Shown: positions 336 to 30,367, counted from the stretch's first letter. The stretch: DNA of 32,000 nt from Acholeplasma laidlawii PG-8A (GCF_000018785.1 NC_010163.1:540001-572000); one strand, 5' to 3'. The notes: a model not told the origin generated them from the letters alone. Translations and numbers: made by a program.

Positions 336-1523
336 CTATTTGTTCTGATGTGCCAGTTTAATTTTGATGAATAAAATGTACAGTATAGATGCTATAGAAA
401 TACACATAATAGGTATAAAAATAACACCCAAACTTACCGAAGAATCTATTAATATACTAGTGTATAAATTACCAATAACAGCAGCTAATCCATAACTTAA
501 ATACATATACCCATAAGTTCTATTAAAGTTATTCTTACCAAAAAGATCTTTGGTAATAATTGGCATTAAAGCTAACCATCCACCCACTGTACCCCAACTA
601 AGTGTAATTGTTAAGATAAATAACCATAGACTCGAAGGATTTAAAAAGATATAGGTCGTTGAAACGAATAAAGTGATCAGTGATATAAGTATCACTGATA
701 TTTTTAGTTTAAACTTGTCATAAATAAATCCAAATAGGGGTCTAAATAAACCGTTTGCAAGTGCGAATAAACTCATATAGATAGTAATGGTAGTAATATC
801 TAAATTATAGTAATCTGTACCAATATAAACGGTTAATCCAATCATAGATAAACCAAACATAATACCTAAAGTAAACAAGATGAAAAATATCGTAAAAGTA
901 TATTTTGAGGCGTGAACTTTTTCTTTCTTATTTTTGACATAGAGTTTTGATAAATCCAATTTTCTTATAAGTAACCATACAAAGATGGATAGAAGTATGG
1001 TAGATGCAATGCCAAAATATAGTAAAGTATTTTGAAACCCAACAGCATTAAAACTTGACTGTAAAACAGGTGCAACAATTACAGTGGATAAGCCGAAACC
1101 TGCAATTGTTAAACCCACTGCAAGACCTTGATTTTTCTCATAGACTGTTTGAATGATCTGTACAGGGATACCATAGAGTATTCCAACCCCAGTCCCTATG
1201 AAAACACCATGACCTAAAGTAAATATGAGGTAATTGGTTGCATAAGCGGCAATCATATAACCAATACCAATCGATAAAATACCGAGGATTGCCCATTTAT
1301 AAAAATTGGATTTTTTCATAAATCTACCGCTTAACATCACCATAAAGGCAAATACTGCAAGTGATGTTAAATAAGGTATAGAACTTTCGGTATGTGTTAA
1401 TCCAAGTTCATTTTCTATCTGTAATCTAATAACGCTATAGGCATAAACTACACCTATGATGAGTTCAATAATAATCCCACTAATTAATACGGTGAGTTGT
1501 TGTTTTTTGTTTAAGGACTGCAT
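336..1523 (-). CDS. MFS transporter, oxalate/formate antiporter (OFA)-like
   Basis: 395 aa, about 12 hydrophobic segments. The N-terminus ...LISGIIIELIIGVVYAYSVI... is typical of OFA-type MFS proteins. The SD is weak. Confidence 0.7.
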   Translation of the reverse strand: MQSLNKKQQLTVLISGIIIELIIGVVYAYSVIRLQIENELGLTHTESSIPYLTSLAVFAFMVMLSGRFMKKSNFYKWAILGILSIGIGYMIAAYATNYLIFTLGHGVFIGTGVGILYGIPVQIIQTVYEKNQGLAVGLTIAGFGLSTVIVAPVLQSSFNAVGFQNTLLYFGIASTILLSIFVWLLIRKLDLSKLYVKNKKEKVHASKYTFTIFFILFTLGIMFGLSMIGLTVYIGTDYYNLDITTITIYMSLFALANGLFRPLFGFIYDKFKLKISVILISLITLFVSTTYIFLNPSSLWLFILTITLSWGTVGGWLALMPIITKDLFGKNNFNRTYGYMYLSYGLAAVIGNLYTSILIDSSVSLGVIFIPIMCISIASILYILFIKIKLAHQNK

Positions 1524-1671
1524 AAATTATGTCAACTTTTCATCATGATAGATTTCGCTTATAAAAAGCGATAAGATAAGCATACCAAATTTAAATAGAT
1601 AAAATCAACAAATATGATTTGAATATCAAACAATATATAGGTGATTGATAATAACCTAAGAATGAATTTCA

Positions 1672-1700
1672 TTGATAAAACCGGTACCATAAGGTATAAT
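1672..1700 (+). promoter_or_regulatory. Sigma-70 type promoter of glgA-glgC
   Basis: TTGATA (1672-1677), a 17-nt spacer, then TATAAT (1695-1700), about 45 nt upstream of the glgA ATG. Confidence 0.6.
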
Positions 1701-1745
1701 TTAATTAAATAGAGATAAGTATCTATAAGAAAGGAATTCTCCTTT

Positions 1746-3182
1746 ATGAAAATTTTGTTTTGTAGTTCAGAGGCTTTCCCTTTTAGTAAAACTGGTGGAT
1801 TAGCTGATATGGCTTATTTTTTGCCTAAATCTATTAATGTATTAGGGCATGAAATTGTTGTAATCACACCTTACTATGAAGGCATAAAAAAACACCATGA
1901 AACTATGACTTATCTTGGAACCAAGACAATTTACATGGGACACGGGGAAGTTGTAGTTAATTACTATAAATTAGTATATGAGAGTATCACCTATATATTT
2001 GTTCAAAATATGCACTATTTTGAAAGAGAAGGATTATATGGTTACCATGATGATGCTGAAAGATTTGCGGCATTTAGTTATGCTATTTTAGAAAGTCTAG
2101 ATATCATAGAGTTTTATCCAGATATCTTGCATATTAATGACTGGCAGACATCTATGATTCCATATCTATTAGACAAACACTACAGACATCAAAGTTTTAA
2201 CTATTTTAGAATACATACATTGCTAACGATACACAATTTACAATATCAAGGGGATTTTGATAAAGATGTAGCCAAATTCTTTAACACAGATTTTGATTAC
2301 ACCTATATTCATTTTGATCGTGTCAATTACCTTAAAGCGGGTATTGAACGTGCAACTAAAATAAATACAGTATCACCAACATATAGTAAAGAAGTGATGA
2401 CCAGGGAATATGGATTTAGTTTAGATGGTTCGCTTCAAAATAGAATAAATGATTTTTCAGGTATTTTAAATGGGATTGATGATCAAAATACTTTTAATCC
2501 AAAGACAGATAAATACCTAATTAAAACCTATAGTGTAAGTAATCATAAATCTGGTAAGAACCTAAATAAACAATTTTTACTAGAACATTTTGGTTTGGAT
2601 AAAAACCTAGATGAACCACTCATTGCCTATGTAGGCAGACTTGCTGATCAAAAAGGACTTGGACTTATGGAATACTGTTTAGAAGAAGTTATCCAATACA
2701 GTAATGCTAAGTTCATCTTAATGGGTTCAGGTGATAAAGCATATGAGGACTACTTTAGATACTTAACTTATAAATATCCAAATAAAGTCGGTAATTACAT
2801 TGGGTTTAATGAAAAAATAGCACACATTATCTATGGGGCTAGTGACATCTTTATGATGCCATCAAGATTTGAACCATGTGGTTTAGGTCAAATGATAGCA
2901 ATGAAATATGGCTCTCTACCAATTGTTAGAGAAACCGGTGGATTAAAGGATAGTGTCATACCGTATAACAAATACACACAAGAAGGTACAGGCTTTAGTT
3001 TTAAGAATTATGATTCTTATGATTTGAAAGAAAAGTTATTTGAAGCAATAAATCTTTATAATGAAGATAAAAAAACATGGCAGATTTTAGTCAAACAAGC
3101 AATGAAAAGTGATTTTGGTTTAAATCAAATGGCTAGAGCATATGAAGAATTATACAAAAACATAATAGGGGAGAAAATATAA
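1746..3182 (+). CDS. glgA: Glycogen (starch) synthase, ADP-glucose type (GT5)
   Basis: 478 aa. N-terminus MKILFCSSEAFPFSKTGGLADM carries the KTGGL motif; C-terminal SRFEPCGLGQM and ETGGLKD motifs are present. Confidence 0.93.
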   Translation: MKILFCSSEAFPFSKTGGLADMAYFLPKSINVLGHEIVVITPYYEGIKKHHETMTYLGTKTIYMGHGEVVVNYYKLVYESITYIFVQNMHYFEREGLYGYHDDAERFAAFSYAILESLDIIEFYPDILHINDWQTSMIPYLLDKHYRHQSFNYFRIHTLLTIHNLQYQGDFDKDVAKFFNTDFDYTYIHFDRVNYLKAGIERATKINTVSPTYSKEVMTREYGFSLDGSLQNRINDFSGILNGIDDQNTFNPKTDKYLIKTYSVSNHKSGKNLNKQFLLEHFGLDKNLDEPLIAYVGRLADQKGLGLMEYCLEEVIQYSNAKFILMGSGDKAYEDYFRYLTYKYPNKVGNYIGFNEKIAHIIYGASDIFMMPSRFEPCGLGQMIAMKYGSLPIVRETGGLKDSVIPYNKYTQEGTGFSFKNYDSYDLKEKLFEAINLYNEDKKTWQILVKQAMKSDFGLNQMARAYEELYKNIIGEKI

Positions 3183-4408
3183 TGGAAACACTAGCACTCA
3201 TACTAGCTGGCGGTAAAGGTACCAGGTTAGATGTCCTATCAGAAAAAAGAAGTAAACCGGCAATGCCTTTTGCAGGAAAATTTAGAATTATTGATTTTAC
3301 GTTATCAAATTGTGTACAATCAGGTATTTATGATATCGCAATCTTAACTCAATATTTACCATTATCGCTTAATAAACACATCGGTAGTGGAAAACCTTGG
3401 GACTTAGATAGAAGAGATTCATCTGTAACACTTTTACAACCTCACACCAATTGGTATATGGGTACAGCGGATGCTGTATTAAAAAACTTAGAATACTTAG
3501 CAAGAAAAAATCCAAAGTATGTACTTATTTTATCTGGTGATCATATCTATAAAATGGATTATAGAAAAATGATTCAAACCCATAAAGAAAAAGGTGCACT
3601 ACTTACAATCGCAACTCAAAGAGTCAAACCAGAAGAAGTATCTAGATTTGGTATCATGTCAATTAATTCAAATAACGAGATTATTGAATTTGAAGAAAAA
3701 CCAAAAGTATCCGATTCAAATCTAGCTTCTATGGGTATTTATCTATTTGACTTTAAACTACTTAAGAAAGTACTTGAAGAAACGATAGCAGAAAACCTAG
3801 ATTTTGGTAAACACGTCATTCCTAAGTTGATTAAAACAACTCAAGCAAGCGTATATGCACATGAATTTAATGATTACTGGATGGATGTAGGTACATTAGA
3901 TGCTTATTTAGATGCCAATTTAGCGATGGCACAAACTTACACTGAGCTTGATTTATACGATCCAACTTGGAAAGTATATACAAAAAGCGAGGATCTGCCA
4001 CCAGTTAAAGCCGGCAGTAAAGCAATCATTCAAGATAGCTTAGTGTCAAATGGTTGTATCATCGAAGGTACTGTCATCAATTCAGTATTAAGCCCAGGGG
4101 TACGTGTTGGTAAGGGAAGTATTGTTAAAGACAGTGTGATCCTAAATGATACAATCATCGGTAACGATGTAAAAATTACTCAATCAATTATTGATAAAGA
4201 AGTCATCATTGGTGGACATACTGAAATTGGTTTTGTTGATGATATGACACCGAATAAAGAAAAACCAGATGTTTTACATACAGGTATTACAGTGGTTGAA
4301 AAGCAATCTATCATTCCAGGAAATATGAAAATAGGTAAAAACGTACGTATTTTCAAAACTGCCACATTTGATAGGAAAGTCATTGAATCTGGTGAAACTA
4401 TAAGATAA
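3182..4408 (+). CDS. glgC: Glucose-1-phosphate adenylyltransferase
   Basis: 408 aa. LILAGGKGTRL...KPAMPFAGKFRIIDFTLSNC motif, C-terminal left-handed beta-helix repeats, and a start that overlaps the glgA stop (TAATG). Confidence 0.92.
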   Translation: METLALILAGGKGTRLDVLSEKRSKPAMPFAGKFRIIDFTLSNCVQSGIYDIAILTQYLPLSLNKHIGSGKPWDLDRRDSSVTLLQPHTNWYMGTADAVLKNLEYLARKNPKYVLILSGDHIYKMDYRKMIQTHKEKGALLTIATQRVKPEEVSRFGIMSINSNNEIIEFEEKPKVSDSNLASMGIYLFDFKLLKKVLEETIAENLDFGKHVIPKLIKTTQASVYAHEFNDYWMDVGTLDAYLDANLAMAQTYTELDLYDPTWKVYTKSEDLPPVKAGSKAIIQDSLVSNGCIIEGTVINSVLSPGVRVGKGSIVKDSVILNDTIIGNDVKITQSIIDKEVIIGGHTEIGFVDDMTPNKEKPDVLHTGITVVEKQSIIPGNMKIGKNVRIFKTATFDRKVIESGETIR

Positions 4409-4422
4409 TCTTTCATAAAAAT

Positions 4423-4464
4423 CTAGTCAGTGTAATATTTATTATACAACTGACTAGTTTTTTT
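4423..4464 (+). terminator. Intrinsic terminator after glgC
   Basis: CTAGTCAGT (4423-4431) pairs perfectly with ACTGACTAG (4449-4457); a T7 run follows at 4458-4464. Confidence 0.8.
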
Positions 4465-4473
4465 ATGTATAAT

Positions 4474-4545
4474 ACCAAAACTTTGAACCACAAAATATTT
4501 TCACAAAACTTTCAATATTTTCACAAAACTTTCAATATTTTCAAC
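4474..4545. repeat. Tandem 20-bp direct repeats upstream of the giant lipoprotein gene
   Basis: TCACAAAACTTTCAATATTT occurs twice perfectly (4501-4520, 4521-4540). Degenerate or truncated copies flank it (ACCAAAACTTTGAA at 4474-4487, CACAAAATATTT at 4489-4500, TCAAC at 4541-4545). Confidence 0.9.
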
Positions 4546-4589
4546 TAAGTGAAAAAAATATACAGAGTGATGAATAATACAGTAAAGCG

Positions 4590-4619
4590 TTTTCATAATC
4601 CTTGTGATTATAATATAAT
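4590..4619 (+). promoter_or_regulatory. Candidate promoter of the lipoprotein gene
   Basis: Overlapping TATAAT boxes at 4609-4614 and 4614-4619; a weak -35 TTTTCA at 4590-4595 (18-nt spacer to the second box). GGAGG RBS at 4656-4660. Confidence 0.35.
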
Positions 4620-4664
4620 GACCTTAGTAGGCGCGATTTACGTCAAAAAAAAATTGGAGGATAT

Positions 4665-7600
4665 ATGAAAAGAAGATTATTAGTTTTATTCATGGTAATT
4701 TTATCTTTTATCTTGGTTTCTTGTACAGAAATTGATGAAGCAAGTTTTAGTTTCAAAGATTCTGAAGTAACCATAAAAGTGGGTGATTCATACACATTAG
4801 ATCATGAAATAACCCAAGGACTTGAAGTCGAATATACAATGTCTGCAGAAGGCATTATTTCTATTTCAGGTCAAACAGTTACAGCACTTGCGGTAGGGGA
4901 AGTAGATGTTACTGCAACTGTTGTTGGTAAAGATTTAAGTGACACTATTAAAATTATAGTTGAAGCAAAAGAAGATCCTGTAGTAGCGGTTCAATCCGTG
5001 GCTATTGCTGGTGATAATGCTGGGTTAGTAGGAGAAGCAATTACATTAACAGCAACAGTATTACCACAAAATGCAACCAATAAGGAAGTTACTTGGACAA
5101 CATCAGATGCAGAACTTGCTACCGTAGAAAATGGTGTGGTCACATTACTTAAAGCTGGTGTGGTTACAATCACAGCAACATCAGGTGAAAAATCAGATAC
5201 ACATGAAATTACGATTTCTGATGTAGTAGTTGATGTTGAATCAGTTACTATTGAAGGTCTTAGTGATGGTGTAGAAGGATCAACGATTACACTAACTGTT
5301 AGTGTACTACCTGTAGATGCAACCGATAAAACTGTAACTTGGACAACTTCAAATGCAGAACTTGCAACTGTAGCAAATGGTGTTGTAACACTTCTTAAAG
5401 AAGGTGTTGTAACGATTACTGCAACATCAGGTGAACAATCAGATACACATGAAATTACAATTAATGCACTCGTTGTTAATGTAGATTCTGTAAGTGTTGA
5501 AGGTTTAAATGAAGGCGTTGTTGATGGAGAAATCACATTAACAGCAACAGTATTACCTCAAAATGCAACCAATAAGGAAGTTACTTGGACAACATCAGAT
5601 GCAGAACTAGCAACTGTAGTAAATGGTGTTGTAACACTTCTAAAAGAAGGTGTTGTAACAATTACTGCAACAGCAGATGGTAAAACAGATTCATTTGAAA
5701 TCACTATCGGACCAAAACCAATTGAACTGGAATCTATTGAAATTACTGGTTCAAGTGCAGGATTCATTGGTGATACAATTAACTTAACTGTGACAGCTTC
5801 ACCAGAAGGTGCTCAACTACCAGTCGTTATATGGTCAGTAAATATTAGTGCTTATGCAACTGTAGAAAATGGCGTAGTTACATTACATCGTCAAGGTACT
5901 GTTTTAGTCACAGCAACCGTTAACGGAATAAGTGCAACACATGAAATTACAGTTCAAAAGGTAGCTGCACAAATAGGTAGCGTAAATTATGGAACTATCC
6001 AAGATGCGATTACTGCAGCAAGTGATTCAGATACTATCGTAATCTTTGGTGGTACACACAATGAAGTTCTAAACATTACTAAATCAAATTTAAACTTCGT
6101 ACCAAAAGAAAATGAGCAAGTTATTCTAACAAATGTTATTAATTTAACAGGAAATCTAGAAAACATATCATTTACAAACTTAGAATTTACTTTAGATGCT
6201 CAAATCAAGAGTACAGGTACTTTAAAAGGATTTACATTCAAAAATAACTTAGTTTATGATACCAATTTAGCAGGTACTACATACGCACCTATTAGCCGCA
6301 TCAATGTCAACGCATTTATTCAATTTTACCGTTTAGCTGGTACAAACCTATTTGGTGATATCCATATAGAAGATAACGTATTTACAAATATCAAATCTGA
6401 TATTATTTCACTAGATCGTACGATGGTAAATGCTGAAATCAATATTAAGTACAATGAATTTAGAAACTTTGAAATCAGTGCGATTCGTTTCGATGGTGGA
6501 TATAATAATGGTACTTATAATATCACAAACAACCTCTTTGAAAATGATGAATTAGGTGCTTATTCAGCAATCACATTTAGAGCTTATGCACCTGAAAGTG
6601 GTAATGTCCAAAATATCTATATCGACGATAATACCTTTGTAAACATCGGTACATTGTCAAAAAATCGTGATGGCGATCAACCAGGCTCTGGTGTCATTAC
6701 ATTCTCTACATTTAATTCAAATGATACAAACGTATTTGTAAGAAATAATGAGTTTACACATACATTTAATAGTATCCACTTAAGAGGGGCATTAACCAAA
6801 TGGTCAGCTACTATAAGTGGTAATACATTTACAGATAGTTTAGGTTACATCTATTTTGATACAACTAAACTTGCAGTATTTGAAACAAATGAGTTTGTGG
6901 ATGCTTTAGGTGAAGCGGTAGACCCTACAAGAGTATTAGAAGTCATAGATCCAGCTTATAAACTTGTTAGAATTGCAGAACCAGTCCTAGAAAGTTTTGA
7001 AATATCTGGTTTTAACGCTGGACAAGTCAGTGAAGAATTATCACTTACATTAGTAGCGACACCACCATATTTTGTATTCTCAGATGTTGTTTGGACATCC
7101 TCTGATGAAGAAGTAGCAACCGTAGTAGATGGTGTTGTCACACTTCTACAAGAAGGTGTTGTGACAATCACTGCAACGTATGGTGAAATGATTGAAACTA
7201 TTGAAATTACTGTTACAGCTAAAATGGCGGCTTATTTAAATGAAGTAGGCTATGTAACCATTCAAGAAGCAATTACTGCAGCAGTAAGTGGTGATACCAT
7301 TGAAGTGAATAAGGGTGAGTTTTCTGAAAACCTAAACATTGATAAACCATTGACACTTTTAGGTTTTGATGGACACCTAACAACATTAACTGGTAAGGTC
7401 ACAATTGCTAAGAATATTGAAAATGTAACAATTGAAGGCTTTAACATGACTGGTAACTTCCAAGTTATAAGTACCGGCACATTAAAAGGATTCTCATTTA
7501 GACATAATCATGTCTTTGATACCAACCTTATAGCAACTGGATACGCTCCAAATGCTAGAACTAATGTCAATGCAATCATCCAATTCTATGCTGGTGCAGG

Positions 7601-10600
7601 TACAAACGTCTTTGGTGATATTCATATTGAATTTAATACATTTAACAACATCAAGTCTGATATTATAGCACTTGATAGAACAATGGCTTCATCAGAAATC
7701 AACATTAGATCTAATGAGTTTACGAATTTCAAAATAGGTGCGATTCGTTTTGATGGTGGTTATAATAACGGTACATACAATATTGAAGATAACATATTTA
7801 AGAATGATGTGAAACAAGCAGAAACTGCAATTTTATTTAGAGCATACTCTGCATCATCTGGCAATTTACAAACCATTAATATTCAAAGAAACCTATTTGA
7901 AAATATTGGTAATGAGTTCAACAATCCAACAGATAACTATGCCCAATCAGCTGTGATTGCAACCTCTACATATAATTCAATGAATATTGATTTTAATATT
8001 ATTGAAAACGTCTTTGTGAACACACATAATACAGTTCATTTAAGAAAAAATGAAACAACGACTACATTAATCTATGATGTAGATGTCCTTAGAAATACAT
8101 TTGAAAACCCAACGGGTTATGTATTCTTTGAAGATGGTGATCTCACACTCTTAGAAGATAACATTTACCTTGATAAAATGGGTCAAGCAGTGGATGCATC
8201 TAAAGTACAGGATGAATTAACAGGTGGTAGAAGAATCATCAAAATCTTACAAGATGAAGCTGAGTATGTCATCATTAGATACACATTCAATGCTGAAACA
8301 GCAACCTATGATATCTCAGAAGAATTTAAAACTGGTGTAGTAGGAAGTAAAGTTACTGTCTTATCAAATCCCGAATTAGGTTACTTCACAGAATTTGAAG
8401 TCTATGAAGGTGTTATTTTAGCTGATGGCTCATTAGTCATTGAAATTTACTATGAAGTATTAGTGAATTCATTTACTTATGAACTGGAATTTAATGGTGG
8501 TAACACATTCTATGAAAATAGAGATGCTATGGTGAATGACTGGATCAATGATTACAATACATTTGGTGGTACATCTTATGTAATTAATGAACTACCAAGA
8601 GATACATTTGGTTCAAGTATAAATATTCATACATTCTTCTTTGATGCAAGATTCCGTGACAAATGGTTATGGGTTGCAAAATATCTAGGTGTTGTAGGTT
8701 CTTCAACAAATAGAGCTTCTGCACAAAATATCGTTAGCCGTGATTCAGTTACTGCTTTTGATGCAGTAAACGCAAACTACCGCTATGCATTCTCATATGA
8801 AGTGAGAGGTTTCATGGATGGCCGTAAATTTACTGAAAATGCAAACTGGCAATCAGCAGATTACAGTCTACGTGACCTTAAATATGGTTTTTGGAGTTAT
8901 TTAATTGCTGATAAACAAGAAACAGTCTTCTTAAGTCAATCAGAGGTTCAAGTATTACCAACAGAAGTATACTTAGAAAATTATGAATTTAAAGGTTGGT
9001 TTAATAATCCGGAATTTACAGGTGATAGAATCTATGAAATCACTGAACCAACTAAACTATATGCAAAATTTGAGGAAAAAAATCCAGTGACATCACTTAC
9101 TATCTCAAATCCAATTGGAGAAATGATTAAAGGTGATACATACGACTTAGTTGTAGATATTGCGCCAACAGATGCATACAATAAACTCTTACTATTTACA
9201 TCGTCTGATGTAAAAGTTATGAGTGTCTCTCCTGAAGGTACATTAACAGCATTAAATGCAGGTATTGCAGTTATTACTGTAACAAACCATAATGGTGAAA
9301 TTATGACTACAATGGAAGTTACTGTACACCCTATGGATGATGTAACTCTAGAATTTAGTTCAGGATTTAATGGATTTATAAATGTTGGTGAAGAATTTAC
9401 AATGACTGCGGTTGGTGTTGGTAAAGATAATGCTGGTAAAACATTTACTTATGTACCAGAAGAAGACGGTATCGTTGAACTTATAGGTACAAACACATTT
9501 AAAGCTTTATTACCAGGAACAACTTTAATTGACATCTTTGATGGTGCAGAACTCATCTACACTTATACAGTAGTAGTTCAAGGTGCACTTGATGCTGAAG
9601 ATAGAGTGGATCAATTACTTGATTTATTAGGTAACGCAAATAATGCAGTGGTTAATGGATTAAACGTTATTACATATTATACTTCAGGACAAGAATGGTC
9701 TGACCCAAGATATGAAAGTGTCAACTTATACTTATTTGATGACTATGTAGTAGACAGAACAACATATCCTGCGGATCCCACAAAATTCTCTAACCGTTTA
9801 ATGGACTCAGTAGAATTTGTCTTAATTCATGACACAGCAAATCTAAACGGTGGTCTAGCAAGCCATGGCTCATTCTTTGCAAATCCAGCAAATAGTATCG
9901 GTATTCATTACACTACAGGTGATTATGGTATCGTATCTAGCTTACCTGATGAATATGTGGGATGGCATGCTGGTGATGGTACTGCATCTAGTTTCCAATG
10001 GCATGATACTGGTATTGTTGTAACAGATAATGAAAAACCAATAATTGATATTTCTACAGATGGTTTCTGGACATTTAATGGACAAAAATCCACTGTCCAA
10101 GCGCCTCGTGGTGATAATAATGCTATCTTAGATAAATCATACTTTACATACCAAGGTCCAACTTGGGATGTCGTAGGTGGTAAATACGTAATTGGTACAC
10201 ACTGGTTTGCTAAGACACAACAAGCTCGTGGTGTGATTGCATCACGCGGTGGTAACCTAAACTCTATTGGTATTGAAATGAACGTTAACAGAAATGCAGA
10301 TATCATTGATACAGTTCAAAGAACAGCAAAATTAGTAGCGAACTTACTAGAAGAAAACAACTTAAGTAATAACCGTGTCATTATGCACAATACTACAGAC
10401 GGTAAGGGTGATCCATATACATTAAACAATACAGTCTATAATGGTACTTGGTATTTTGACAGATTTATGGAACATGTAGCAATTGAAAGACTAGTCTTAT
10501 CACAATTTGCAGATGCAACGATTACATTCCATTCAGACTCAGAATTACTATCTGATACAGGTCGTGTGATTGCAATGCCACAAGTTACAACTGAAGTACA

Positions 10601-10742
10601 ATATACAATTACAGTTGAAATAGACGGCGTATCTAAATCTATTACACTTACATCAGTAATTCCTGGTATTCATACATGGAGTCAAAACTACGGATTCTTT
10701 AAACCAACACAAGCTTGGGCAAAAGCAGATTACCGTAAATAA
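4665..10742 (+). CDS. Giant surface lipoprotein: Big_2 Ig-like repeats, two right-handed beta-helix modules, a Flg_new-like repeat, and a C-terminal N-acetylmuramoyl-L-alanine amidase (Amidase_2) domain
   Basis: 2025 aa. Signal peptide MKRRLLVLFMVILSFILVSC with lipobox LVSC (Cys20). Repeated ...VTWTTSDAELATVxNGVVTLLKxGVVTITAT... units (Big_2). Two NNxF/xNxF-rich beta-helix blocks. YEFKGWFNNPEFTGDRIYEITEPTKLYAKF (Flg_new-like). Amidase motifs VLIHDTA, IGIHY, VGWHAGDG, NSIGIE, HNTTDGKGDP. Confidence 0.85.
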   Translation: MKRRLLVLFMVILSFILVSCTEIDEASFSFKDSEVTIKVGDSYTLDHEITQGLEVEYTMSAEGIISISGQTVTALAVGEVDVTATVVGKDLSDTIKIIVEAKEDPVVAVQSVAIAGDNAGLVGEAITLTATVLPQNATNKEVTWTTSDAELATVENGVVTLLKAGVVTITATSGEKSDTHEITISDVVVDVESVTIEGLSDGVEGSTITLTVSVLPVDATDKTVTWTTSNAELATVANGVVTLLKEGVVTITATSGEQSDTHEITINALVVNVDSVSVEGLNEGVVDGEITLTATVLPQNATNKEVTWTTSDAELATVVNGVVTLLKEGVVTITATADGKTDSFEITIGPKPIELESIEITGSSAGFIGDTINLTVTASPEGAQLPVVIWSVNISAYATVENGVVTLHRQGTVLVTATVNGISATHEITVQKVAAQIGSVNYGTIQDAITAASDSDTIVIFGGTHNEVLNITKSNLNFVPKENEQVILTNVINLTGNLENISFTNLEFTLDAQIKSTGTLKGFTFKNNLVYDTNLAGTTYAPISRINVNAFIQFYRLAGTNLFGDIHIEDNVFTNIKSDIISLDRTMVNAEINIKYNEFRNFEISAIRFDGGYNNGTYNITNNLFENDELGAYSAITFRAYAPESGNVQNIYIDDNTFVNIGTLSKNRDGDQPGSGVITFSTFNSNDTNVFVRNNEFTHTFNSIHLRGALTKWSATISGNTFTDSLGYIYFDTTKLAVFETNEFVDALGEAVDPTRVLEVIDPAYKLVRIAEPVLESFEISGFNAGQVSEELSLTLVATPPYFVFSDVVWTSSDEEVATVVDGVVTLLQEGVVTITATYGEMIETIEITVTAKMAAYLNEVGYVTIQEAITAAVSGDTIEVNKGEFSENLNIDKPLTLLGFDGHLTTLTGKVTIAKNIENVTIEGFNMTGNFQVISTGTLKGFSFRHNHVFDTNLIATGYAPNARTNVNAIIQFYAGAGTNVFGDIHIEFNTFNNIKSDIIALDRTMASSEINIRSNEFTNFKIGAIRFDGGYNNGTYNIEDNIFKNDVKQAETAILFRAYSASSGNLQTINIQRNLFENIGNEFNNPTDNYAQSAVIATSTYNSMNIDFNIIENVFVNTHNTVHLRKNETTTTLIYDVDVLRNTFENPTGYVFFEDGDLTLLEDNIYLDKMGQAVDASKVQDELTGGRRIIKILQDEAEYVIIRYTFNAETATYDISEEFKTGVVGSKVTVLSNPELGYFTEFEVYEGVILADGSLVIEIYYEVLVNSFTYELEFNGGNTFYENRDAMVNDWINDYNTFGGTSYVINELPRDTFGSSINIHTFFFDARFRDKWLWVAKYLGVVGSSTNRASAQNIVSRDSVTAFDAVNANYRYAFSYEVRGFMDGRKFTENANWQSADYSLRDLKYGFWSYLIADKQETVFLSQSEVQVLPTEVYLENYEFKGWFNNPEFTGDRIYEITEPTKLYAKFEEKNPVTSLTISNPIGEMIKGDTYDLVVDIAPTDAYNKLLLFTSSDVKVMSVSPEGTLTALNAGIAVITVTNHNGEIMTTMEVTVHPMDDVTLEFSSGFNGFINVGEEFTMTAVGVGKDNAGKTFTYVPEEDGIVELIGTNTFKALLPGTTLIDIFDGAELIYTYTVVVQGALDAEDRVDQLLDLLGNANNAVVNGLNVITYYTSGQEWSDPRYESVNLYLFDDYVVDRTTYPADPTKFSNRLMDSVEFVLIHDTANLNGGLASHGSFFANPANSIGIHYTTGDYGIVSSLPDEYVGWHAGDGTASSFQWHDTGIVVTDNEKPIIDISTDGFWTFNGQKSTVQAPRGDNNAILDKSYFTYQGPTWDVVGGKYVIGTHWFAKTQQARGVIASRGGNLNSIGIEMNVNRNADIIDTVQRTAKLVANLLEENNLSNNRVIMHNTTDGKGDPYTLNNTVYNGTWYFDRFMEHVAIERLVLSQFADATITFHSDSELLSDTGRVIAMPQVTTEVQYTITVEIDGVSKSITLTSVIPGIHTWSQNYGFFKPTQAWAKADYRK
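4989..5960 (+). repeat. Four tandem in-frame Big_2 repeats (3 x 246 bp plus 234 bp)
   Basis: Units at 4989-5234, 5235-5480, 5481-5726 and 5727-5960. Segments 5043-5116 and 5535-5608 are identical at 73 of 74 nt. Confidence 0.9.
5961..8230 (+). repeat. Intragenic segmental duplication with a period of about 1260 nt, covering a beta-helix module and a Big_2 unit
   Basis: Block starting AAQIGSVNYGTIQDAITAA (5961) matches the block starting AAYLNEVGYVTIQEAITAA (7224). The core ...SAIRFDGGYNNGTYNI... at 6481 recurs as ...GAIRFDGGYNNGTYNI... at 7741. Core protein identity is about 70% by eye. Confidence 0.85.
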
Positions 10743-10754
10743 CACATAATAAAA

Positions 10755-10792
10755 AAGCTGGTCCTACTATTAAAGTAAGACCAGCTTCTTTT
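10755..10792. terminator. Bidirectional intrinsic terminator between convergent genes
   Basis: AAGCTGGTC (10755-10763) pairs with GACCAGCTT (10779-10787). An A-run lies upstream and a T-rich tract downstream. Confidence 0.75.
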
Positions 10793-10818: not shown

Positions 10819-11322
10819 TTATCTTTCAAATTGTAATATGGAATAAATTAAAGAAGTAATACTTCCTAAGATAGCAAATACATAACCTAATATTGCACCA
10901 ATGGCTAAGTCTTGGCCTCCAAAAGTAGCAGTAACTTCATTACCTAAAATGGTAGTTACGTGTGTTGTATTTTGTGGAAGTTGAAAGAATAATACAATAG
11001 ATAAAGAAAATGTTAGTGTTAAGAGTAAACCGAAAATTAACTTGGACATGGATGTTTTTTTATCGTTAATCGTCGATAAAACAAAGATAATACTTATAAG
11101 TGCTGGTAAACTAAATGCTAACAAGTTTAATAGACTAAAATTCACTTTGTGATCTAAAAATCCACCGATTTGGAAAGTTTCACCACCGAATGTTGCTGTA
11201 ACACCGGTTACGATAGCTTCCCCATTGCTGTTTTGAAGTACGTTTAAAAACATACTACCAAAGATAAGTAGTGCTAGAAATAGTATAACAACTGGGAGAA
11301 AATTTTGTAATTTTTTTGTCAT
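10819..11322 (-). CDS. Small integral membrane protein (4 predicted TM), function unknown
   Basis: 167 aa with four hydrophobic segments. The loop motif VTATFGG(E/Q) is duplicated. Strong RBS (AAGGGGG, 8 nt before the ATG). Confidence 0.6.
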   Translation of the reverse strand: MTKKLQNFLPVVILFLALLIFGSMFLNVLQNSNGEAIVTGVTATFGGETFQIGGFLDHKVNFSLLNLLAFSLPALISIIFVLSTINDKKTSMSKLIFGLLLTLTFSLSIVLFFQLPQNTTHVTTILGNEVTATFGGQDLAIGAILGYVFAILGSITSLIYSILQFER

Positions 11323-11411: not shown

Positions 11412-11435
11412 GGCAATAGGTAGGTGAGAATCGTG

Positions 11436-14400
11436 ATGCATAAAAATGAACTATTAGAACAACTAAATGATTTGAGAACTGAACTTAGACTTTCGCATTT
11501 TAATAAAACCGGAGAGCAAATAATCATAATAAGTGATGCTGCTCTTTTTGAGGTGGCTCAAAAAAGACCTCTAAAACTAAATGAGTTTAATGCGATTTCT
11601 GGTCTTGATACAGATTTTAATAAGAAATATGCCCAGGAATTTATAAGTATTATTAAATCATTTAATCAGTCAAATATAAAGTCCGTTAAAGTATCTAAAC
11701 AAGCAAGTAAAGTACTACACCACTATAAAGATAGACTCACAAACATGTCTAAAACAAATTCCAATCTTTATATGGGACAAATCTATCAAAATCATAGTTT
11801 CGATTTAACTTTAATTGAAAATAACTTTGAACTAAAAGACTATTTAATTAATAATCGCATTAAGAACTTAAAACTTAACTATAGAAGTGATGCCGATGAA
11901 AGACATATAACAAAACTCTATAGAGAAGTAAATAAGACCCAAATAGAAACAGGTAGTTATAACCTTTATATTGCTTACCCTTATGTGGAAGGTATCTTTA
12001 GTAAGGATAAGTTTCCGATTAAAGCACCACTACTTTATTTTCCTGTAAAAATTGAGCGAACCCTTCGTACATTTACATTAAAAAAAGATAGTGAAAGAGA
12101 TGTTATTTTTAATAGAGACTTATTGTTGATTACATCTAAAATGGAAAAATCATCCATGGATTTTAACGCACCTGAAGTCACAGATTTCAATGAAAAAGTA
12201 CTTCATGAGGTTGTTATCCCATTCTACGAAAAACATGGCATATCCATTGATGTAGATTCAAAACACATAGAGTTCATCTCTTTTAAAAATGAATTGAAAG
12301 AAGATTTTGTAAAGGTTCATCGTCCTAAGTTTAAACTACAACCTTATGCAACGTTATCAAGATTTCAACTCTACTCATCCAGTATTCAAAAAGACATGGA
12401 ACGTATCTTATCTTCTAAACAGTATAATGATCTGCTTGAAGGTTTAATCGATGAAACGAACCTTTTTAAGCAAGAAGTATCTAAACCTATGGAAATATCA
12501 GGTGAACCCATTCATGAAGATAAAATCAGCTATATAAACGATTTAAACTTCAGTCAAGAACGTGTCATTGATTTACTAAATGATGAGAAGAAAATTGTCA
12601 TATGGGGTCCACCGGGTACCGGTAAAAGTCAAACCATCACCTCATTAATTGCATCCAGTATTTTAAAGGGTGAAAATGTCTTAGTGGTCTCCGAAAAAAA
12701 GGTTGCTCTAGATGTTATTTACTCTAGATTAAAAAAAGCATCGAAATATGCCATGTTTATTGATGATGCAGAAAATAAACAAGATTTTTATTATAAATTA
12801 AATCATTTTCTAGAACCGGAACCACCTGTTCGTACACTCAATAATGATATCTATGCCTTAGAATCGGAAATTAAAAGACAATTAAATGATATGGAAAAAT
12901 CACTTCAATTACTTTACGGGCACACATTTGAAAATAAGCCTGTATTTGAACTCTTTTCTAGATATATTAAGGATAAAGACATTAAACTTCACTTAACACC
13001 TTATGATGTACATAAGATGTTTCATGAAGTCTATAAAAAACCAAGTTTTCAAATGATTGAGGCACTAGAAAAAACTTTCGATAATGATGCACACCTTAAA
13101 CGTATGATGGATTTAGATTGGTACTTAGAAAAGTATCCAGTGCTACAAAAATTAGAAACAAAAATACCAAGAAGCCAAAAACTGATGTTTGATCAAATGC
13201 ATGAAAAGTATCTTCAGCTAAAAACAACCTATCAAAGATCAGGTATCTTTAAAAGAAGCAAACTTAAGAAAACATTTATAAAAACATACATCGATGAAAT
13301 AACTTATTTAAGTGTCAAAAAAAGTATCAGAAAGAAGTATTTAAATCAATTATTTGTGGATGATAGATTACATAGTTATGTCTTTGAAAATATGAACCGT
13401 TTAAATAAATTAATGACGATTTATCAAACGCTAAAACCGTTTGAAAAAACGTTCTTAAAGATAATGCATTCACATCCAAAAGTAAAAGGTATAGATGAAA
13501 ATTATAAACTAAGAACTTATATTTTTGAAGCTTATTATTCAGGCTTTATTGAGGTCTTTAAGTCTGAACACCAAAAACATTTATATATCTTTGATAATTA
13601 TCAAGAAAAGGTTGATAAGATTAAAGAAATCATGCATCAAAAAATGTTGGTTACTAATGAATCGTTTGAAATGGAACTTTATAAACATGCACTTAATTTA
13701 AATAATACAAAACGTATTATGGATATTAAAAGAGTGTTTGATTTGACGAATAAACCAAGCATTAAGTCTTTTATAGAAACCTTCCAACTAGAAATGAAAA
13801 GTCACATCAGGTTATGGATGATGACACCAGAAGTGGTATCAGCTATTTTACCCTTAGAACACGGTATGTTTGATTTAGTTATCTTTGATGAGGCAAGCCA
13901 AATGTATGTAGAAAAAGGTATACCTGCAATTTATAGAGCTAAAAAAGTTGTTATTGCAGGAGACCCTAAACAACTTAGACCAAGTAGTTTAGGTACAGGT
14001 AGAACAGATGAACTGGATGAGTTTTATGAAGATGATGTCTTTAAAGAAGTATCGTTAGATGCTAAAAGTTTATTAGACCTTGCAAGATACCGCTTTAAAG
14101 AAGCACTACTAAATTATCACTACCGCTCGACGTATGAGGAATTAATCGCGTTTTCTAACCACGCATTTTATGATGCCAAGTTAATGATTTCACCAAATCA
14201 AAAAAAGGCGGTTGAACCACCGATTGAATATATATATGTTAAAGATGGTATGTTTGAAAATAGAAGAAATAAAAAAGAAGCAACTAAAGTTGTTGAAGTG
14301 ATTAAAAAGATACTAAGAACAAGACAACATAATGAATCCATTGGTGTGATTACATTTAATAGTACTCAAAGAGATGCTATTGAAAATGCAATCGATCAAG

Positions 14401-15146
14401 AACTCTTTAAAAAAGGAACATATCAAAAAGCGTTTGAACAAGAACTGTTTAGAAAAGAAGACGGTGAAGATAAATCATTATTCGTTAAAAATATTGAAAA
14501 CGTTCAAGGTGATGAAAGAGATATCATAATTTTTTCAATGGGATATGCTAAAAACAGCCAAGGACAAGTGATGAGACGATTTGGGTGGCTTAACCATGAT
14601 GGCGGACAAAACAGGCTTAATGTGGCTATTACACGCGCCAAACAAAAGATTTATTTCATATCTAGTTTGTATCCGGAAGAATTTAAAGTAGAAGACTTAA
14701 GTTCGACTGGTCCAAAGTTATTAAAAGATTTTATGAGATATTGTTACTATGTTTCAAATGAAAACGAGGCACTTGCTAAAGAGGTATTAAATCATTTACA
14801 TAGTACAGAGATTGAAACCAGAAATATGCTTATAACACATATGGTAGATGATGTTAAGAAGCGTTTAGAAAGATTAGGGTTTGACGTTGATTTAAATGTT
14901 GGTATTGGTAAATATAAAATCAATCTAGCAATTAAAGATGATAAACAAAAAGCCTATAAGTTAGGTATCTTAACAGATGTAGGTCTAAATGATTTAAATG
15001 CAAGGCGAGATTTACTACATCAAGAAAAATACTTAGAGTCTAGGGGATGGACCGTATATAGATTGTTAGAATCGAATTGGTATACAGATCCTAATAAAGA
15101 GTTAAAACAAATTAAAGATTTAATGAAAATAGAAAAGAGTAATTAA
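11436..15146 (+). CDS. Superfamily 1 (Upf1/DNA2-like, AAA_11/AAA_12) helicase with N-terminal HRDC-like and DUF4011-like regions and a C-terminal DUF559/REase_MTES_1575-like fold
   Basis: Walker A WGPPGTGKSQT (about 12604), VIFDEASQM (about 13881), AGDPKQLRP, YHYRS, NVQGDERDIIIFS, RLNVAITRAKQKIY. N-terminus LNDLRTELR...IIISDAALFEVAQKRPLKLNEFNAISGL is HRDC-like. The ORF track starts at GTG 11424, but AGGTGA (11422-11427) is placed 8 nt before ATG 11436, which I prefer. Confidence 0.85.
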   Translation: MHKNELLEQLNDLRTELRLSHFNKTGEQIIIISDAALFEVAQKRPLKLNEFNAISGLDTDFNKKYAQEFISIIKSFNQSNIKSVKVSKQASKVLHHYKDRLTNMSKTNSNLYMGQIYQNHSFDLTLIENNFELKDYLINNRIKNLKLNYRSDADERHITKLYREVNKTQIETGSYNLYIAYPYVEGIFSKDKFPIKAPLLYFPVKIERTLRTFTLKKDSERDVIFNRDLLLITSKMEKSSMDFNAPEVTDFNEKVLHEVVIPFYEKHGISIDVDSKHIEFISFKNELKEDFVKVHRPKFKLQPYATLSRFQLYSSSIQKDMERILSSKQYNDLLEGLIDETNLFKQEVSKPMEISGEPIHEDKISYINDLNFSQERVIDLLNDEKKIVIWGPPGTGKSQTITSLIASSILKGENVLVVSEKKVALDVIYSRLKKASKYAMFIDDAENKQDFYYKLNHFLEPEPPVRTLNNDIYALESEIKRQLNDMEKSLQLLYGHTFENKPVFELFSRYIKDKDIKLHLTPYDVHKMFHEVYKKPSFQMIEALEKTFDNDAHLKRMMDLDWYLEKYPVLQKLETKIPRSQKLMFDQMHEKYLQLKTTYQRSGIFKRSKLKKTFIKTYIDEITYLSVKKSIRKKYLNQLFVDDRLHSYVFENMNRLNKLMTIYQTLKPFEKTFLKIMHSHPKVKGIDENYKLRTYIFEAYYSGFIEVFKSEHQKHLYIFDNYQEKVDKIKEIMHQKMLVTNESFEMELYKHALNLNNTKRIMDIKRVFDLTNKPSIKSFIETFQLEMKSHIRLWMMTPEVVSAILPLEHGMFDLVIFDEASQMYVEKGIPAIYRAKKVVIAGDPKQLRPSSLGTGRTDELDEFYEDDVFKEVSLDAKSLLDLARYRFKEALLNYHYRSTYEELIAFSNHAFYDAKLMISPNQKKAVEPPIEYIYVKDGMFENRRNKKEATKVVEVIKKILRTRQHNESIGVITFNSTQRDAIENAIDQELFKKGTYQKAFEQELFRKEDGEDKSLFVKNIENVQGDERDIIIFSMGYAKNSQGQVMRRFGWLNHDGGQNRLNVAITRAKQKIYFISSLYPEEFKVEDLSSTGPKLLKDFMRYCYYVSNENEALAKEVLNHLHSTEIETRNMLITHMVDDVKKRLERLGFDVDLNVGIGKYKINLAIKDDKQKAYKLGILTDVGLNDLNARRDLLHQEKYLESRGWTVYRLLESNWYTDPNKELKQIKDLMKIEKSN

Positions 15147-16926: not shown

Positions 16927-17682
16927 ATGGATAGATTAAGAAGATTAGGTGACATCTTACAAGCATTTGATGCTTATGATGTTTTTGAGTATTATAAATT
17001 AAATGGTGCTTCTGCACTACAATTTTTAATTATTGATTTAGGATTTGTAACAAATGAACTCAACTTTGATTTAGATACAAATTTAGATATTAAAAAAGTA
17101 AATGAATTAAGAAATATAGTAAACCGTGAACTACCAAAAATATTACAACAAAAAAACTTTAGTTTAGATGTGAAGCACACACAATTAACAGGCAGGATTG
17201 ACAGTTATGCGATCATTGATAATACAACGAAGCATGAGTATAAATTAAACTTTAATTATTTAAACCGTGTTCACGTATTAAACCCGGAATACTTTGCAAG
17301 AAAAGATAATCAGTTTGAGGATTTACATATATACGCCTTATCAACACTTGAAAACTATGCCAAGTTTTTTGTTGAAATATTTGAAGGTAAACCTTTTATC
17401 AATGTACTTGATCATGTAATTGCATCCAACAAAATTATGCCTCAACAATACCCTTTTATCAAAAAAATGGTGCTTTTTTACATAGCAATTAGTGATATGA
17501 AGCAACAAATTAATTTAGATTTAATGCCGCTTAAGTTAAAAACTTTACTTAACTTTAACGAAAACGATCTTTTATTTTTAGATAAAGTAAATCAGGGTGT
17601 ATTAGACATACCTATGATTTTACCTCCAACCATGGCATCAAAACTAGATAATCATCCGAAAGTTAAATTAATGAGGCAATAA
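16927..17682 (+). CDS. Hypothetical protein, no recognisable family
   Basis: 251-aa ORF with normal codon usage for the window. It sits 16 nt after SRAP and ends 1 nt before the LLM gene ATG. I recognise no motif. Confidence 0.55.
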   Translation: MDRLRRLGDILQAFDAYDVFEYYKLNGASALQFLIIDLGFVTNELNFDLDTNLDIKKVNELRNIVNRELPKILQQKNFSLDVKHTQLTGRIDSYAIIDNTTKHEYKLNFNYLNRVHVLNPEYFARKDNQFEDLHIYALSTLENYAKFFVEIFEGKPFINVLDHVIASNKIMPQQYPFIKKMVLFYIAISDMKQQINLDLMPLKLKTLLNFNENDLLFLDKVNQGVLDIPMILPPTMASKLDNHPKVKLMRQ

Positions 17683-21229: not shown

Positions 21230-21249
21230 TCAACTTATAAAGAAAATGA

Positions 21250-21277
21250 GCCTTATTTTAATAATAAGGCCATTTTT
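21250..21277 (+). terminator. Intrinsic terminator after glgP
   Basis: GCCTTATT (21250-21257) pairs with AATAAGGC (21263-21270); CATTTTT follows. Confidence 0.7.
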
Positions 21278-21334
21278 GTAGCATATTTATTGTAAAATAG
21301 GATTAAAGGACAAACATTGGGGAGGTACATAAAA

Positions 21335-30340: not shown

Positions 30341-30367
30341 TTGGCACTCATGCATTATGATTGCTAA
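30341..30367 (+). promoter_or_regulatory. CIRCE (HrcA operator) upstream of lon
   Basis: TTGGCACTC-N9-GATTGCTAA against consensus TTAGCACTC-N9-GAGTGCTAA: 16 of 18 positions match, with exact 9-nt spacing. Confidence 0.7.

Follow-up and report, generated by a model that had tools for sequence, protein, structure and literature searches.

Peptidoglycan amidases of the Amidase_2 family have been described in several settings, and these form the background for the gene reported here. It lies at positions 4665-10742 (+) of a 32,000-nucleotide stretch of the Acholeplasma laidlawii PG-8A chromosome (NC_010163.1:540001-572000; this whole stretch is called the window) and encodes a predicted lipoprotein of 2025 amino acids (aa) with an amidase domain towards its C-terminus. 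The best sequence and structure matches to this amidase are the prophage and phage endolysins XlyA (PBSX, Bacillus subtilis; 3hmb/3rdr), PlyL (Bacillus anthracis; 1yb0/2ar3) and PlyG (2l47), which have the same fold and the same zinc-binding and catalytic positions. Amidase_2 endolysins and prophage amidases are roughly 230-300 aa long, and the solved catalytic domains of the endolysins comprise about 160 aa. Endolysins act from inside on the wall of their producer and use Cys as the third zinc ligand where the A. laidlawii enzyme has Asp. They also lack the lipoprotein anchor, the array of immunoglobulin-like (Ig-like) and beta-helix domains, the 86-aa insert and the N-terminal beta extension of the A. 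laidlawii protein.

Other described enzymes come closer in the place where they work. The staphylococcal Atl amidases AmiA/AmiE (4knk, 3lat) and the CwlA/CwlH-type autolysins of Bacillus likewise join Amidase_2 to repeat domains and act outside the membrane. They remodel their own cell wall, however, and are kept there by wall-binding repeats, whereas the A. laidlawii protein would be lipid-anchored on a cell that has no wall. PGLYRP2 and the insect peptidoglycan recognition proteins (PGRPs) PGRP-LB/SC are extracellular Amidase_2 enzymes that peptidoglycan-free organisms direct against foreign peptidoglycan; the analogy is functional only, and these proteins are small, soluble and immune-regulatory, without stalk or lipid anchor. 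By its description, the Ami enzyme of Lysobacter capsici can also be likened to the A. laidlawii protein, as an extracellular amidase that cleaves the bond between N-acetylmuramic acid and L-alanine (MurNAc-L-Ala) and acts against other bacteria (PMC12219114). Its producer is a walled Gram-negative bacterium, and Ami is secreted or vesicle-borne and lacks the giant multidomain lipoprotein architecture. Finally, Anaeroplasma bactoclasticum is a wall-less relative of Acholeplasma that lyses bacteria, and a metagenome-assembled genome (MAG) labelled with this species encodes an insert-bearing lipoprotein amidase. The species was named for its bacteriolysis. Robinson and Hungate reportedly described, in 1973, the bacteriolytic factor of this anaerobic rumen mollicute, and to our knowledge the gene for this factor has never been identified.

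The amidase domain and its conservation

The gene is an intact open reading frame (ORF) with an ATG start, preceded by a GGAGG ribosome-binding site at 4656-4660 that was found by sequence inspection. It translates in full into the 2025-aa product that the first-pass annotation had read from it, and the NCBI name of this product is only 'Ig-like domain-containing protein'. The protein and 10 kb on either side of its gene matched A. laidlawii GCA_900476025.1 (LS483439.1, 1.50 Mb) exactly. The host, for which the first-pass annotation had proposed an 'Acholeplasma-like' Mollicute, is A. laidlawii itself and hence a wall-less mollicute. Mollicutes, including A. laidlawii, lack a cell wall and contain no murein (PMC7301438, PMC4628116, PMC4432640).

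The catalytic domain (aa 1715-1925; 9807..10439, +) was delimited by Pfam, profile alignment, Foldseek and conservation. Amidase_2 (PF01510) matched aa 1715-1917 with 42.3 bits against a gathering score of 26 (E 1.2e-10), and a profile of 23 family members matched XlyA at E 1.1e-32, as well as PlyL and PlyG. In the alignment, H1722, E1871, H1908, K1914 and D1916 correspond to H29, E90, H129, K135 and C137 of PlyL, which places the zinc ligands at H1722, H1908 and D1916 and the catalytic residues at E1871 and K1914. The register of this alignment is confirmed by the column of E1871 and PlyL E90, where the deposited mutant 2ar3 (E90A) shows Ala. The C-terminal Amidase_2 domain proposed earlier was thus recovered with a significant Pfam match and with zinc and catalytic residues that align with those of solved amidases.

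Structure prediction agreed with these results, and the models of aa 845-1500 and 1655-2025 bear out the domain limits given here. The AlphaFold2 model of aa 1655-2025 (m18d7eaded897) reached a predicted local distance difference test (pLDDT) of 90.2 and a predicted template modelling score (pTM) of 0.92, and Foldseek aligned it with 3hmb, 3rdr (XlyA) and 2ar3 (PlyL) at a template modelling (TM) score of 0.84 and a root-mean-square deviation of 2.8 Å. Staphylococcal AmiA/AmiE and AmpD were matched as well, in keeping with the T7 lysozyme-like fold of Amidase_2. In the model, a beta-strand N-terminal extension (aa 1655-1714; 9627..9806, +) packs on the amidase, and a beta-rich insert of 86 aa (aa 1776-1861; 9990..10247, +), also evident in the Pfam alignment, interrupts the Amidase_2 domain. 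The remainder of the protein, up to the stop codon (10440..10742, +), consists of a beta-sandwich (aa 1926-~2005) and a disordered tail. This sandwich is conserved in the family, and Foldseek aligned short stretches of it with the accessory beta domains found in glycosidases.

Both His ligands, the Glu and the Lys are invariant (23/23 family sequences). Asp occupies the position of the third zinc ligand (aa 1916, nucleotides 10410-10412) only in the clade of A. laidlawii and A. oculi, including a paralogue of the protein (loci L002-L009), and Cys occupies it in every other clade of the family. AmpD and AmiD use Asp as their third zinc ligand, so that Asp1916 is not expected to inactivate the enzyme. 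Ratios of nonsynonymous to synonymous substitution (dN/dS) against A. oculi, estimated by the Nei-Gojobori method and to be read as approximate, were 0.026 for the amidase core, 0.034 for the N-terminal extension and 0.165 for the whole protein. The N-terminal Ig-like array was the fastest-evolving part (0.34), and the catalytic core was the most constrained part of the gene. Judging from residues and substitution patterns, the domain is apparently a catalytically competent N-acetylmuramoyl-L-alanine amidase (EC 3.5.1.28), and selection appears to preserve its catalytic centre in a wall-less lineage.

Because the host has no murein, foreign peptidoglycan is the only plausible substrate. The proposal that the enzyme would have to act on the cell walls of other organisms had already been made in the first-pass annotation, and both the murein-free host and the strong purifying selection on the enzyme support it. 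We propose, with a probability of roughly two in three, that the protein is a lipid-anchored, stalked amidase that hydrolyses foreign peptidoglycan, scavenging from dead, damaged or adjacent bacteria. The analysis establishes which host the gene comes from, how the protein is laid out, its lipobox and fold, the intactness of its catalytic residues, the purifying selection on it and the distribution of its family. Its surface exposure, enzyme activity, substrate, the role of its beta-helix modules and its nutritional purpose are what we infer in making this proposal.

The predicted lipid anchor and the modules of the predicted stalk

The N-terminus is a lipoprotein signal peptide (aa 1-20; 4665..4724, +), with MKRRLLVLFMVILSFILVS leading up to the C of the lipobox L-V-S-C in the translation. 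It conforms to the pattern [LVI][ASTVI][GAS]C and has a positive n-region and a hydrophobic core (MKRR-LLVLFMVILSFI-LVSC). The lipobox, as first read at LVSC, would thus place the predicted lipidation at Cys20. A lipobox recurs in 15/15 relatives with a complete N-terminus that were checked, and a permissive pattern detected a lipobox-like motif in most complete N-termini among 79 related loci. On these features the 2025-aa protein is a predicted lipoprotein, which would be lipidated and exposed at the surface.

Much of the predicted stalk is built of Ig-like domains. Pfam Big_2 (PF02368) matched six stretches above its cutoff (E 3e-46, 155.6 bits), and a hidden Markov model (HMM) made from the protein's own copies recovered seven domains, six of them strong (109-187, 190-268, 272-350, 354-433, 775-852 and 1487-1557) and one weak (53-100). 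An eighth, at ~1573-1640, was seen only as a weak hhalign match (E 3e-4, probability 41%). The earlier count of 'at least eight' Big_2-like domains therefore holds for six, while the other two are weak. Five of the domains, the first of which is divergent, form an N-terminal array according to Pfam and the own-copy HMM (aa 25-433; 4737..5963, +). The sixth (aa 775-852; 6987..7220, +) was placed by the same HMM and by the comparison of modules, and two more follow further on (aa 1487-1557, firm, and ~1573-1640, weak; 9123..9584, +). Within the N-terminal array, Tandem Repeats Finder reported a 246-bp (82-aa) repeat at 5039-5701 with 2.7 copies and 77% identity, which marks a recent duplication of Ig-like domains, three of the N-terminal domains after the divergent first one being recent duplicates. 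Full-length orthologues from A. oculi and from Acholeplasmataceae MAGs (49-75% identity, 1946-2605 aa) have two or three beta-helix copies and vary in the number of both Ig-like and beta-helix copies, suggesting that the length of the stalk is evolutionarily variable.

Two beta-helix modules make up another large part of the protein. Module 1 (aa 434-775; 5964..6989, +) was recognised by its identity to module 2 (aa 856-1169; 7230..8171, +), residues 425-793 and 845-1218 being 46% identical over 375 aa (E 1e-90). An AlphaFold2 model of aa 845-1500 (m26b0ecb8fbe6, pLDDT 87.7) folded module 2 as a right-handed parallel beta-helix with regular three-strand rungs over aa 856-1169. Every top Foldseek match to this model was a beta-helix protein, including PL6 alginate lyases, RbmB, chondroitinase B, polygalacturonase and phage tailspikes, but the matches were weak and generic (E 3e-4 to 0.1, 10-15% identity, TM 0.2-0.4). 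Pfam Beta_helix (PF13229) gave no match on the 2025-aa protein even at E up to 10, and NosD matched the region only weakly (25 bits against a cutoff of 300). No glycoside hydrolase (GH) or polysaccharide lyase (PL) family matched the modules, and searches of PDB sequences with the beta-helix and middle regions returned nothing useful. The two paralogous beta-helix modules of the first-pass annotation are therefore upheld by their mutual identity and by the model, though not by PF13229. Its description of them as candidate glycan-cleaving modules found no backing beyond weak fold matches. PL6 alginate lyases, RbmB and the P22/Sf6 tailspikes share the overall fold of both modules, but the A. laidlawii module matches them only generically and belongs to a small family of its own.

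An exhaustive HMMER search of 1.84 billion representative proteins found 120 with E <=0.001 for the beta-helix module. When 41 of these relatives were scanned with Pfam, Amidase_2 was present in 17/41 and CHAP in 1/41, and no other catalytic domain was found in the 41 proteins. PF13229 matched 4 of 33 relatives of the module. The modules have conserved polar motifs (RFDGGYNNG, SDIIxxxR and HLR), for which we found no correspondence to a known active site. We conclude that the modules are beta-helices associated with wall hydrolases. Most likely they bind a glycan of the cell envelope, which is the conservative reading; cleavage of glycans by them is possible.

The region between the second beta-helix and the last Ig-like domains was resolved mainly by modelling. 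An all-beta domain (aa 1181-1275; 8205..8489, +), defined by AlphaFold2 secondary structure, had no match in Pfam or among PDB sequences. It is followed by a Flg_new-like repeat interrupted by helices (~aa 1276-1480; 8490..9104, +), for which Flg_new (PF09479) scored 17.8-19.6 bits, below its gathering score of 27, over profile positions 22-65 only. Its strands lie at ~1276-1285 and 1421-1480 in the model, and between them is an alpha-helical domain of ~130 aa (aa 1286-1417; 8520..8915, +; helices at model residues 442-573). The large insert that had been noted in this repeat is thus seen in the model as a helical domain, while the repeat itself has only a partial Pfam match below cutoff. In the paralogue and in other relatives, Flg_new scored well over the cutoff, and the helical domain recurs in the paralogue and in ~22/79 related loci.

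Relatives of the protein and the gene neighbourhood

A scan of one representative genome per GTDB species with the C-terminal amidase unit yielded 521 relatives. The best 80 of the 521 belong mainly to Acholeplasma, Acholeplasmataceae, Haloplasmataceae, 'Mollicutes', CAG:324/CAG:698-type genomes and MAGs of unclassified Bacilli. Acholeplasmataceae MAGs, both free-living ones and those from digesters or slurry, contain many members of the family. Between one and three beta-helix modules occur in ~24/79 related loci, and an Izemoplasmatales MAG protein likewise joins Big_2 and Amidase_2. Homologues bear CwlA/CwlH labels in the JGI and NCBI annotations, and a more distant clade of orthologues contains an A. 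hippikon protein labelled 'CwlH precursor'. RF39 genomes mostly retain mraY and murG, and RFN20 genomes mostly lack them (PMC7301438). As the lineages of some relatives (RF39) mostly keep peptidoglycan genes, the family probably derives from walled ancestors and was repurposed; it would then predate the loss of the wall.

A. laidlawii strain 8195 encodes, at a second locus, a paralogous lipoprotein of 867 aa (lipobox LIAC) with a Flg_new repeat, the helical domain, two Ig-like domains and an amidase unit of 63% identity, and without a beta-helix. NCBI labels it 'peptidoglycan recognition protein family protein'. Genes for an ABC sugar permease and for a phosphorylase of family GH94 (cellobiose/chitobiose-type) immediately precede its own (473-7116 in locus L006; ~46-59 kb in the record). 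This context would suit glycan salvage, although the adjacency is perhaps coincidental.

The best 80 of the 521 relatives also include the MAG labelled Anaeroplasma bactoclasticum. Its homologue, a lipoprotein of 760 aa, combines a lipobox and Cys-rich repeats with parts that resemble Ig-like domains and Flg_new and with an insert-bearing amidase that is 36% identical and has the Cys ligand; it has no beta-helix modules. Two MAGs labelled Prevotella sp. and A. bactoclasticum (L050 and L056) share this 760-aa homologue with the lipobox LFAC at the identical position, so that at least one of the labels or bins is doubtful. When the protein of the A. bactoclasticum MAG was used as the seed of a search, none of the proteins recovered bore the name of a cultured strain of Anaeroplasma. 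The link to Anaeroplasma thus comes from a MAG label and is tentative for the type strain.

With respect to novelty, the catalytic domain is of an already known kind. What is new is an amidase unit that bears an insert, a lipoprotein stalk that includes an undescribed beta-helix family and a Flg_new repeat interrupted by helices, and most of all the fact that wall-less bacteria deploy a peptidoglycan amidase in a conserved manner. In the parts of the literature consulted on amidases, peptidoglycan and bacteriolysis in Acholeplasma, Mollicutes, Tenericutes and Anaeroplasma, neither such an enzyme nor any of these features appeared to be described. The first-pass annotation had not recognised the combined architecture as a described system, and this agrees with the literature searched; the architecture is not unique, however, but belongs to a sizeable family of lipoprotein amidases.

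The gene itself looks monocistronic, as it has its own promoter-like site, the GGAGG site and a strong hairpin before a convergent ORF. A consensus scan found the promoter-like site at 4590..4619 (+), as TTTTCA-18-TATAAT or TTCATA-16-TATAAT, with 10/12 matches to the consensus and as a consensus match only. About 50 bp upstream of it, Tandem Repeats Finder reported a perfect 20-bp repeat, AATATTTTCACAAAACTTTC, in 2.5 copies (4494..4543, +; 100% matches, score 100). This repeat may be an operator or the binding site of a regulator, and its association with the gene is uncertain. Downstream, a terminator scan located a hairpin with an 18-bp stem (10751..10791, -) in the gap between the amidase gene and a convergent ORF of 167 aa (10819-11322, -), which has no Pfam match. 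The hairpin, common to the two genes, looks like a bidirectional terminator.

The amidase gene sits among genes for glycogen metabolism and housekeeping; no phage genes flank it, and none for toxins, immunity or secretion were found near it. The glycogen genes are divided, with glgA and glgC upstream (1746-4408) and glgP and glgB downstream (18851-23179). The ~14 kb between the two pairs hold the amidase gene, a superfamily 1 (SF1) helicase of 1240 aa with a C-terminal restriction endonuclease (REase) domain (11424-15146), DUF1294, DUF2188, SRAP and a luciferase-like oxidoreductase, and the amidase gene has a slightly higher guanine-cytosine (GC) content (0.34 against 0.30-0.32). This segment could be an insertion. 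A further ORF of 251 aa (16927-17682, +) had no Pfam match. Elsewhere in the window, tig, lon and a CIRCE-like element were all found, as noted before; in the interval between tig and lon, the inverted repeat TTGGCACTC-N9-GATTGCTAA (30341-30367) has 2 mismatches.

A proposed role in the use of foreign cell walls

We envisage the following mode of action. The N-terminal lipid would anchor the protein in the membrane, and the amidase would be displayed at the distal C-terminal end of a long stalk made of the Ig-like domains, the two beta-helix modules and the Flg_new/helical unit. Assuming ~4 nm per Ig-like domain and ~5 nm per beta-helix, this stalk may measure several tens of nm and would distance the fragile membrane from the target. 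The beta-helix modules may dock the enzyme by binding, or possibly cutting, glycans of the cell envelope. The amidase would then cleave the MurNAc-L-Ala bonds in the walls of dead, damaged or neighbouring bacteria and so detach the stem peptides from the glycan strands. Sacculi would be loosened, and peptides, glycans and cell contents would be freed for uptake by an auxotrophic scavenger. Since it has no murein of its own, the cell would be intrinsically immune to the amidase that it displays. Such a lifestyle is consistent with observations on these bacteria. In pig slurry, 13C-RNA probing showed that Acholeplasma was the first to assimilate dead E. coli and that it dominated this assimilation within 2 h (PMC4628116), and bacteriolysis with recycling of dead cells has been ascribed to rumen mycoplasmas (PMC8941964).

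Some points weigh against the scavenging proposal. Live Gram-negative bacteria have an outer membrane that would keep the amidase out, and the 86-aa insert could gate or change the active site. The dN/dS values are approximate because dS against A. oculi is near saturation (~1.2-1.4). Moreover, as RF39 genomes mostly keep mraY and murG, some of the relatives may be ordinary autolysins.

The same sequence, fold and residue evidence, and the position of the enzyme at the outermost end of a long stalk, would also suit contact-dependent antagonism or predation, perhaps as part of an epibiotic lifestyle. The stalked amidase and the beta-helix modules would then breach the walls of living neighbours, so that competitors are killed or the cytoplasm of prey is accessed. 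The beta-helix fold is common to the depolymerases of phage tailspikes, and the homologue in the MAG labelled Anaeroplasma bactoclasticum would fit as well. An amidase alone, however, rarely kills turgid cells from outside and cannot cross the Gram-negative outer membrane, and the neighbourhood of the gene holds no genes for toxins, immunity or secretion. The classical assay of Anaeroplasma bacteriolysis reportedly used killed cells, and the stable isotope probing study of assimilation used dead cells too (PMC4628116). We consider antagonism unlikely, though still to be reckoned with. Less probable again is that the protein serves mainly as an adhesin or lectin, its arrays and PGRP-like domain binding bacterial walls or host or plant glycans for co-aggregation or colonisation, with catalysis being incidental. 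Arrays of Big_2 and Flg_new and the beta-helix are typical of adhesins, the paralogue is labelled as a peptidoglycan recognition protein, and the N-terminal Ig-like array is the part that evolves fastest. Yet every family member keeps the catalytic and zinc positions, and no part of the protein is more constrained than the catalytic core. PGRPs that only bind have usually lost the Cys that ligates zinc.

Animal amidase PGRPs trim muropeptides with the same fold, and the A. laidlawii protein might likewise trim fragments shed by the surrounding microbiota, thereby dampening or altering the innate immune signalling of a host. A. laidlawii does colonise animals and plants (PMC4628116), but the family is abundant in free-living and digester or slurry MAGs and the locus holds no pointer to host interaction, which makes this role very improbable. 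We give least credence of all to a functionless relic, be it an autolysin left over from an ancestor with a wall or a prophage endolysin that was domesticated. Among solved structures, its nearest relatives are indeed prophage and phage endolysins (XlyA, PlyL and PlyG), and some relatives occur in possibly walled lineages (PMC7301438). Against decay stand a 6-kb ORF that is intact in several species, the existence of two paralogues, dN/dS values of 0.03-0.17 and invariant catalytic residues; against a phage source stand the lack of flanking phage genes and the coverage of the amidase core only by viral structures (TMq <=0.40). A pseudogene was rejected on the dN/dS values and the intact orthologues, and a prophage origin on the missing phage context and the absence of a viral model beyond the amidase core. 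Nor does the protein belong to the phage endolysin class: no lysis cassette accompanies it, it carries a lipoprotein signal, and it is not a small two-domain protein.

Scavenging by a lipid-anchored amidase therefore remains our preferred explanation. A bolder view is that the Acholeplasmatales, together with other wall-less lineages related to them, live by bacteriolytic feeding or even by epibiotic predation. This family, with beta-helix modules that dock or cut, would be their dedicated means of breaching walls and would include the long-sought 'bacterioclastic factor' of Anaeroplasma. We regard this view as doubtful and offer it as speculation; if it is true, the absence of murein would be a built-in immunity to a lytic weapon displayed on the surface.

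These findings have further implications for the biology of the family. They define two uncharacterised modules closely linked to wall hydrolases, one a beta-helix family with few members and the other a helical domain inserted into Flg_new, and the insert-bearing Amidase_2 subfamily is possibly of interest as a lytic enzyme. The amidase family is a candidate explanation for the bacteriolysis by rumen anaeroplasmas that was reported decades ago, and also for the speed with which Acholeplasma assimilates dead bacterial biomass in slurry. A conserved and selected peptidoglycan amidase on the surface of a mollicute would imply trophic or antagonistic dealings with walled bacteria, an interaction that has hardly been explored at the molecular level.

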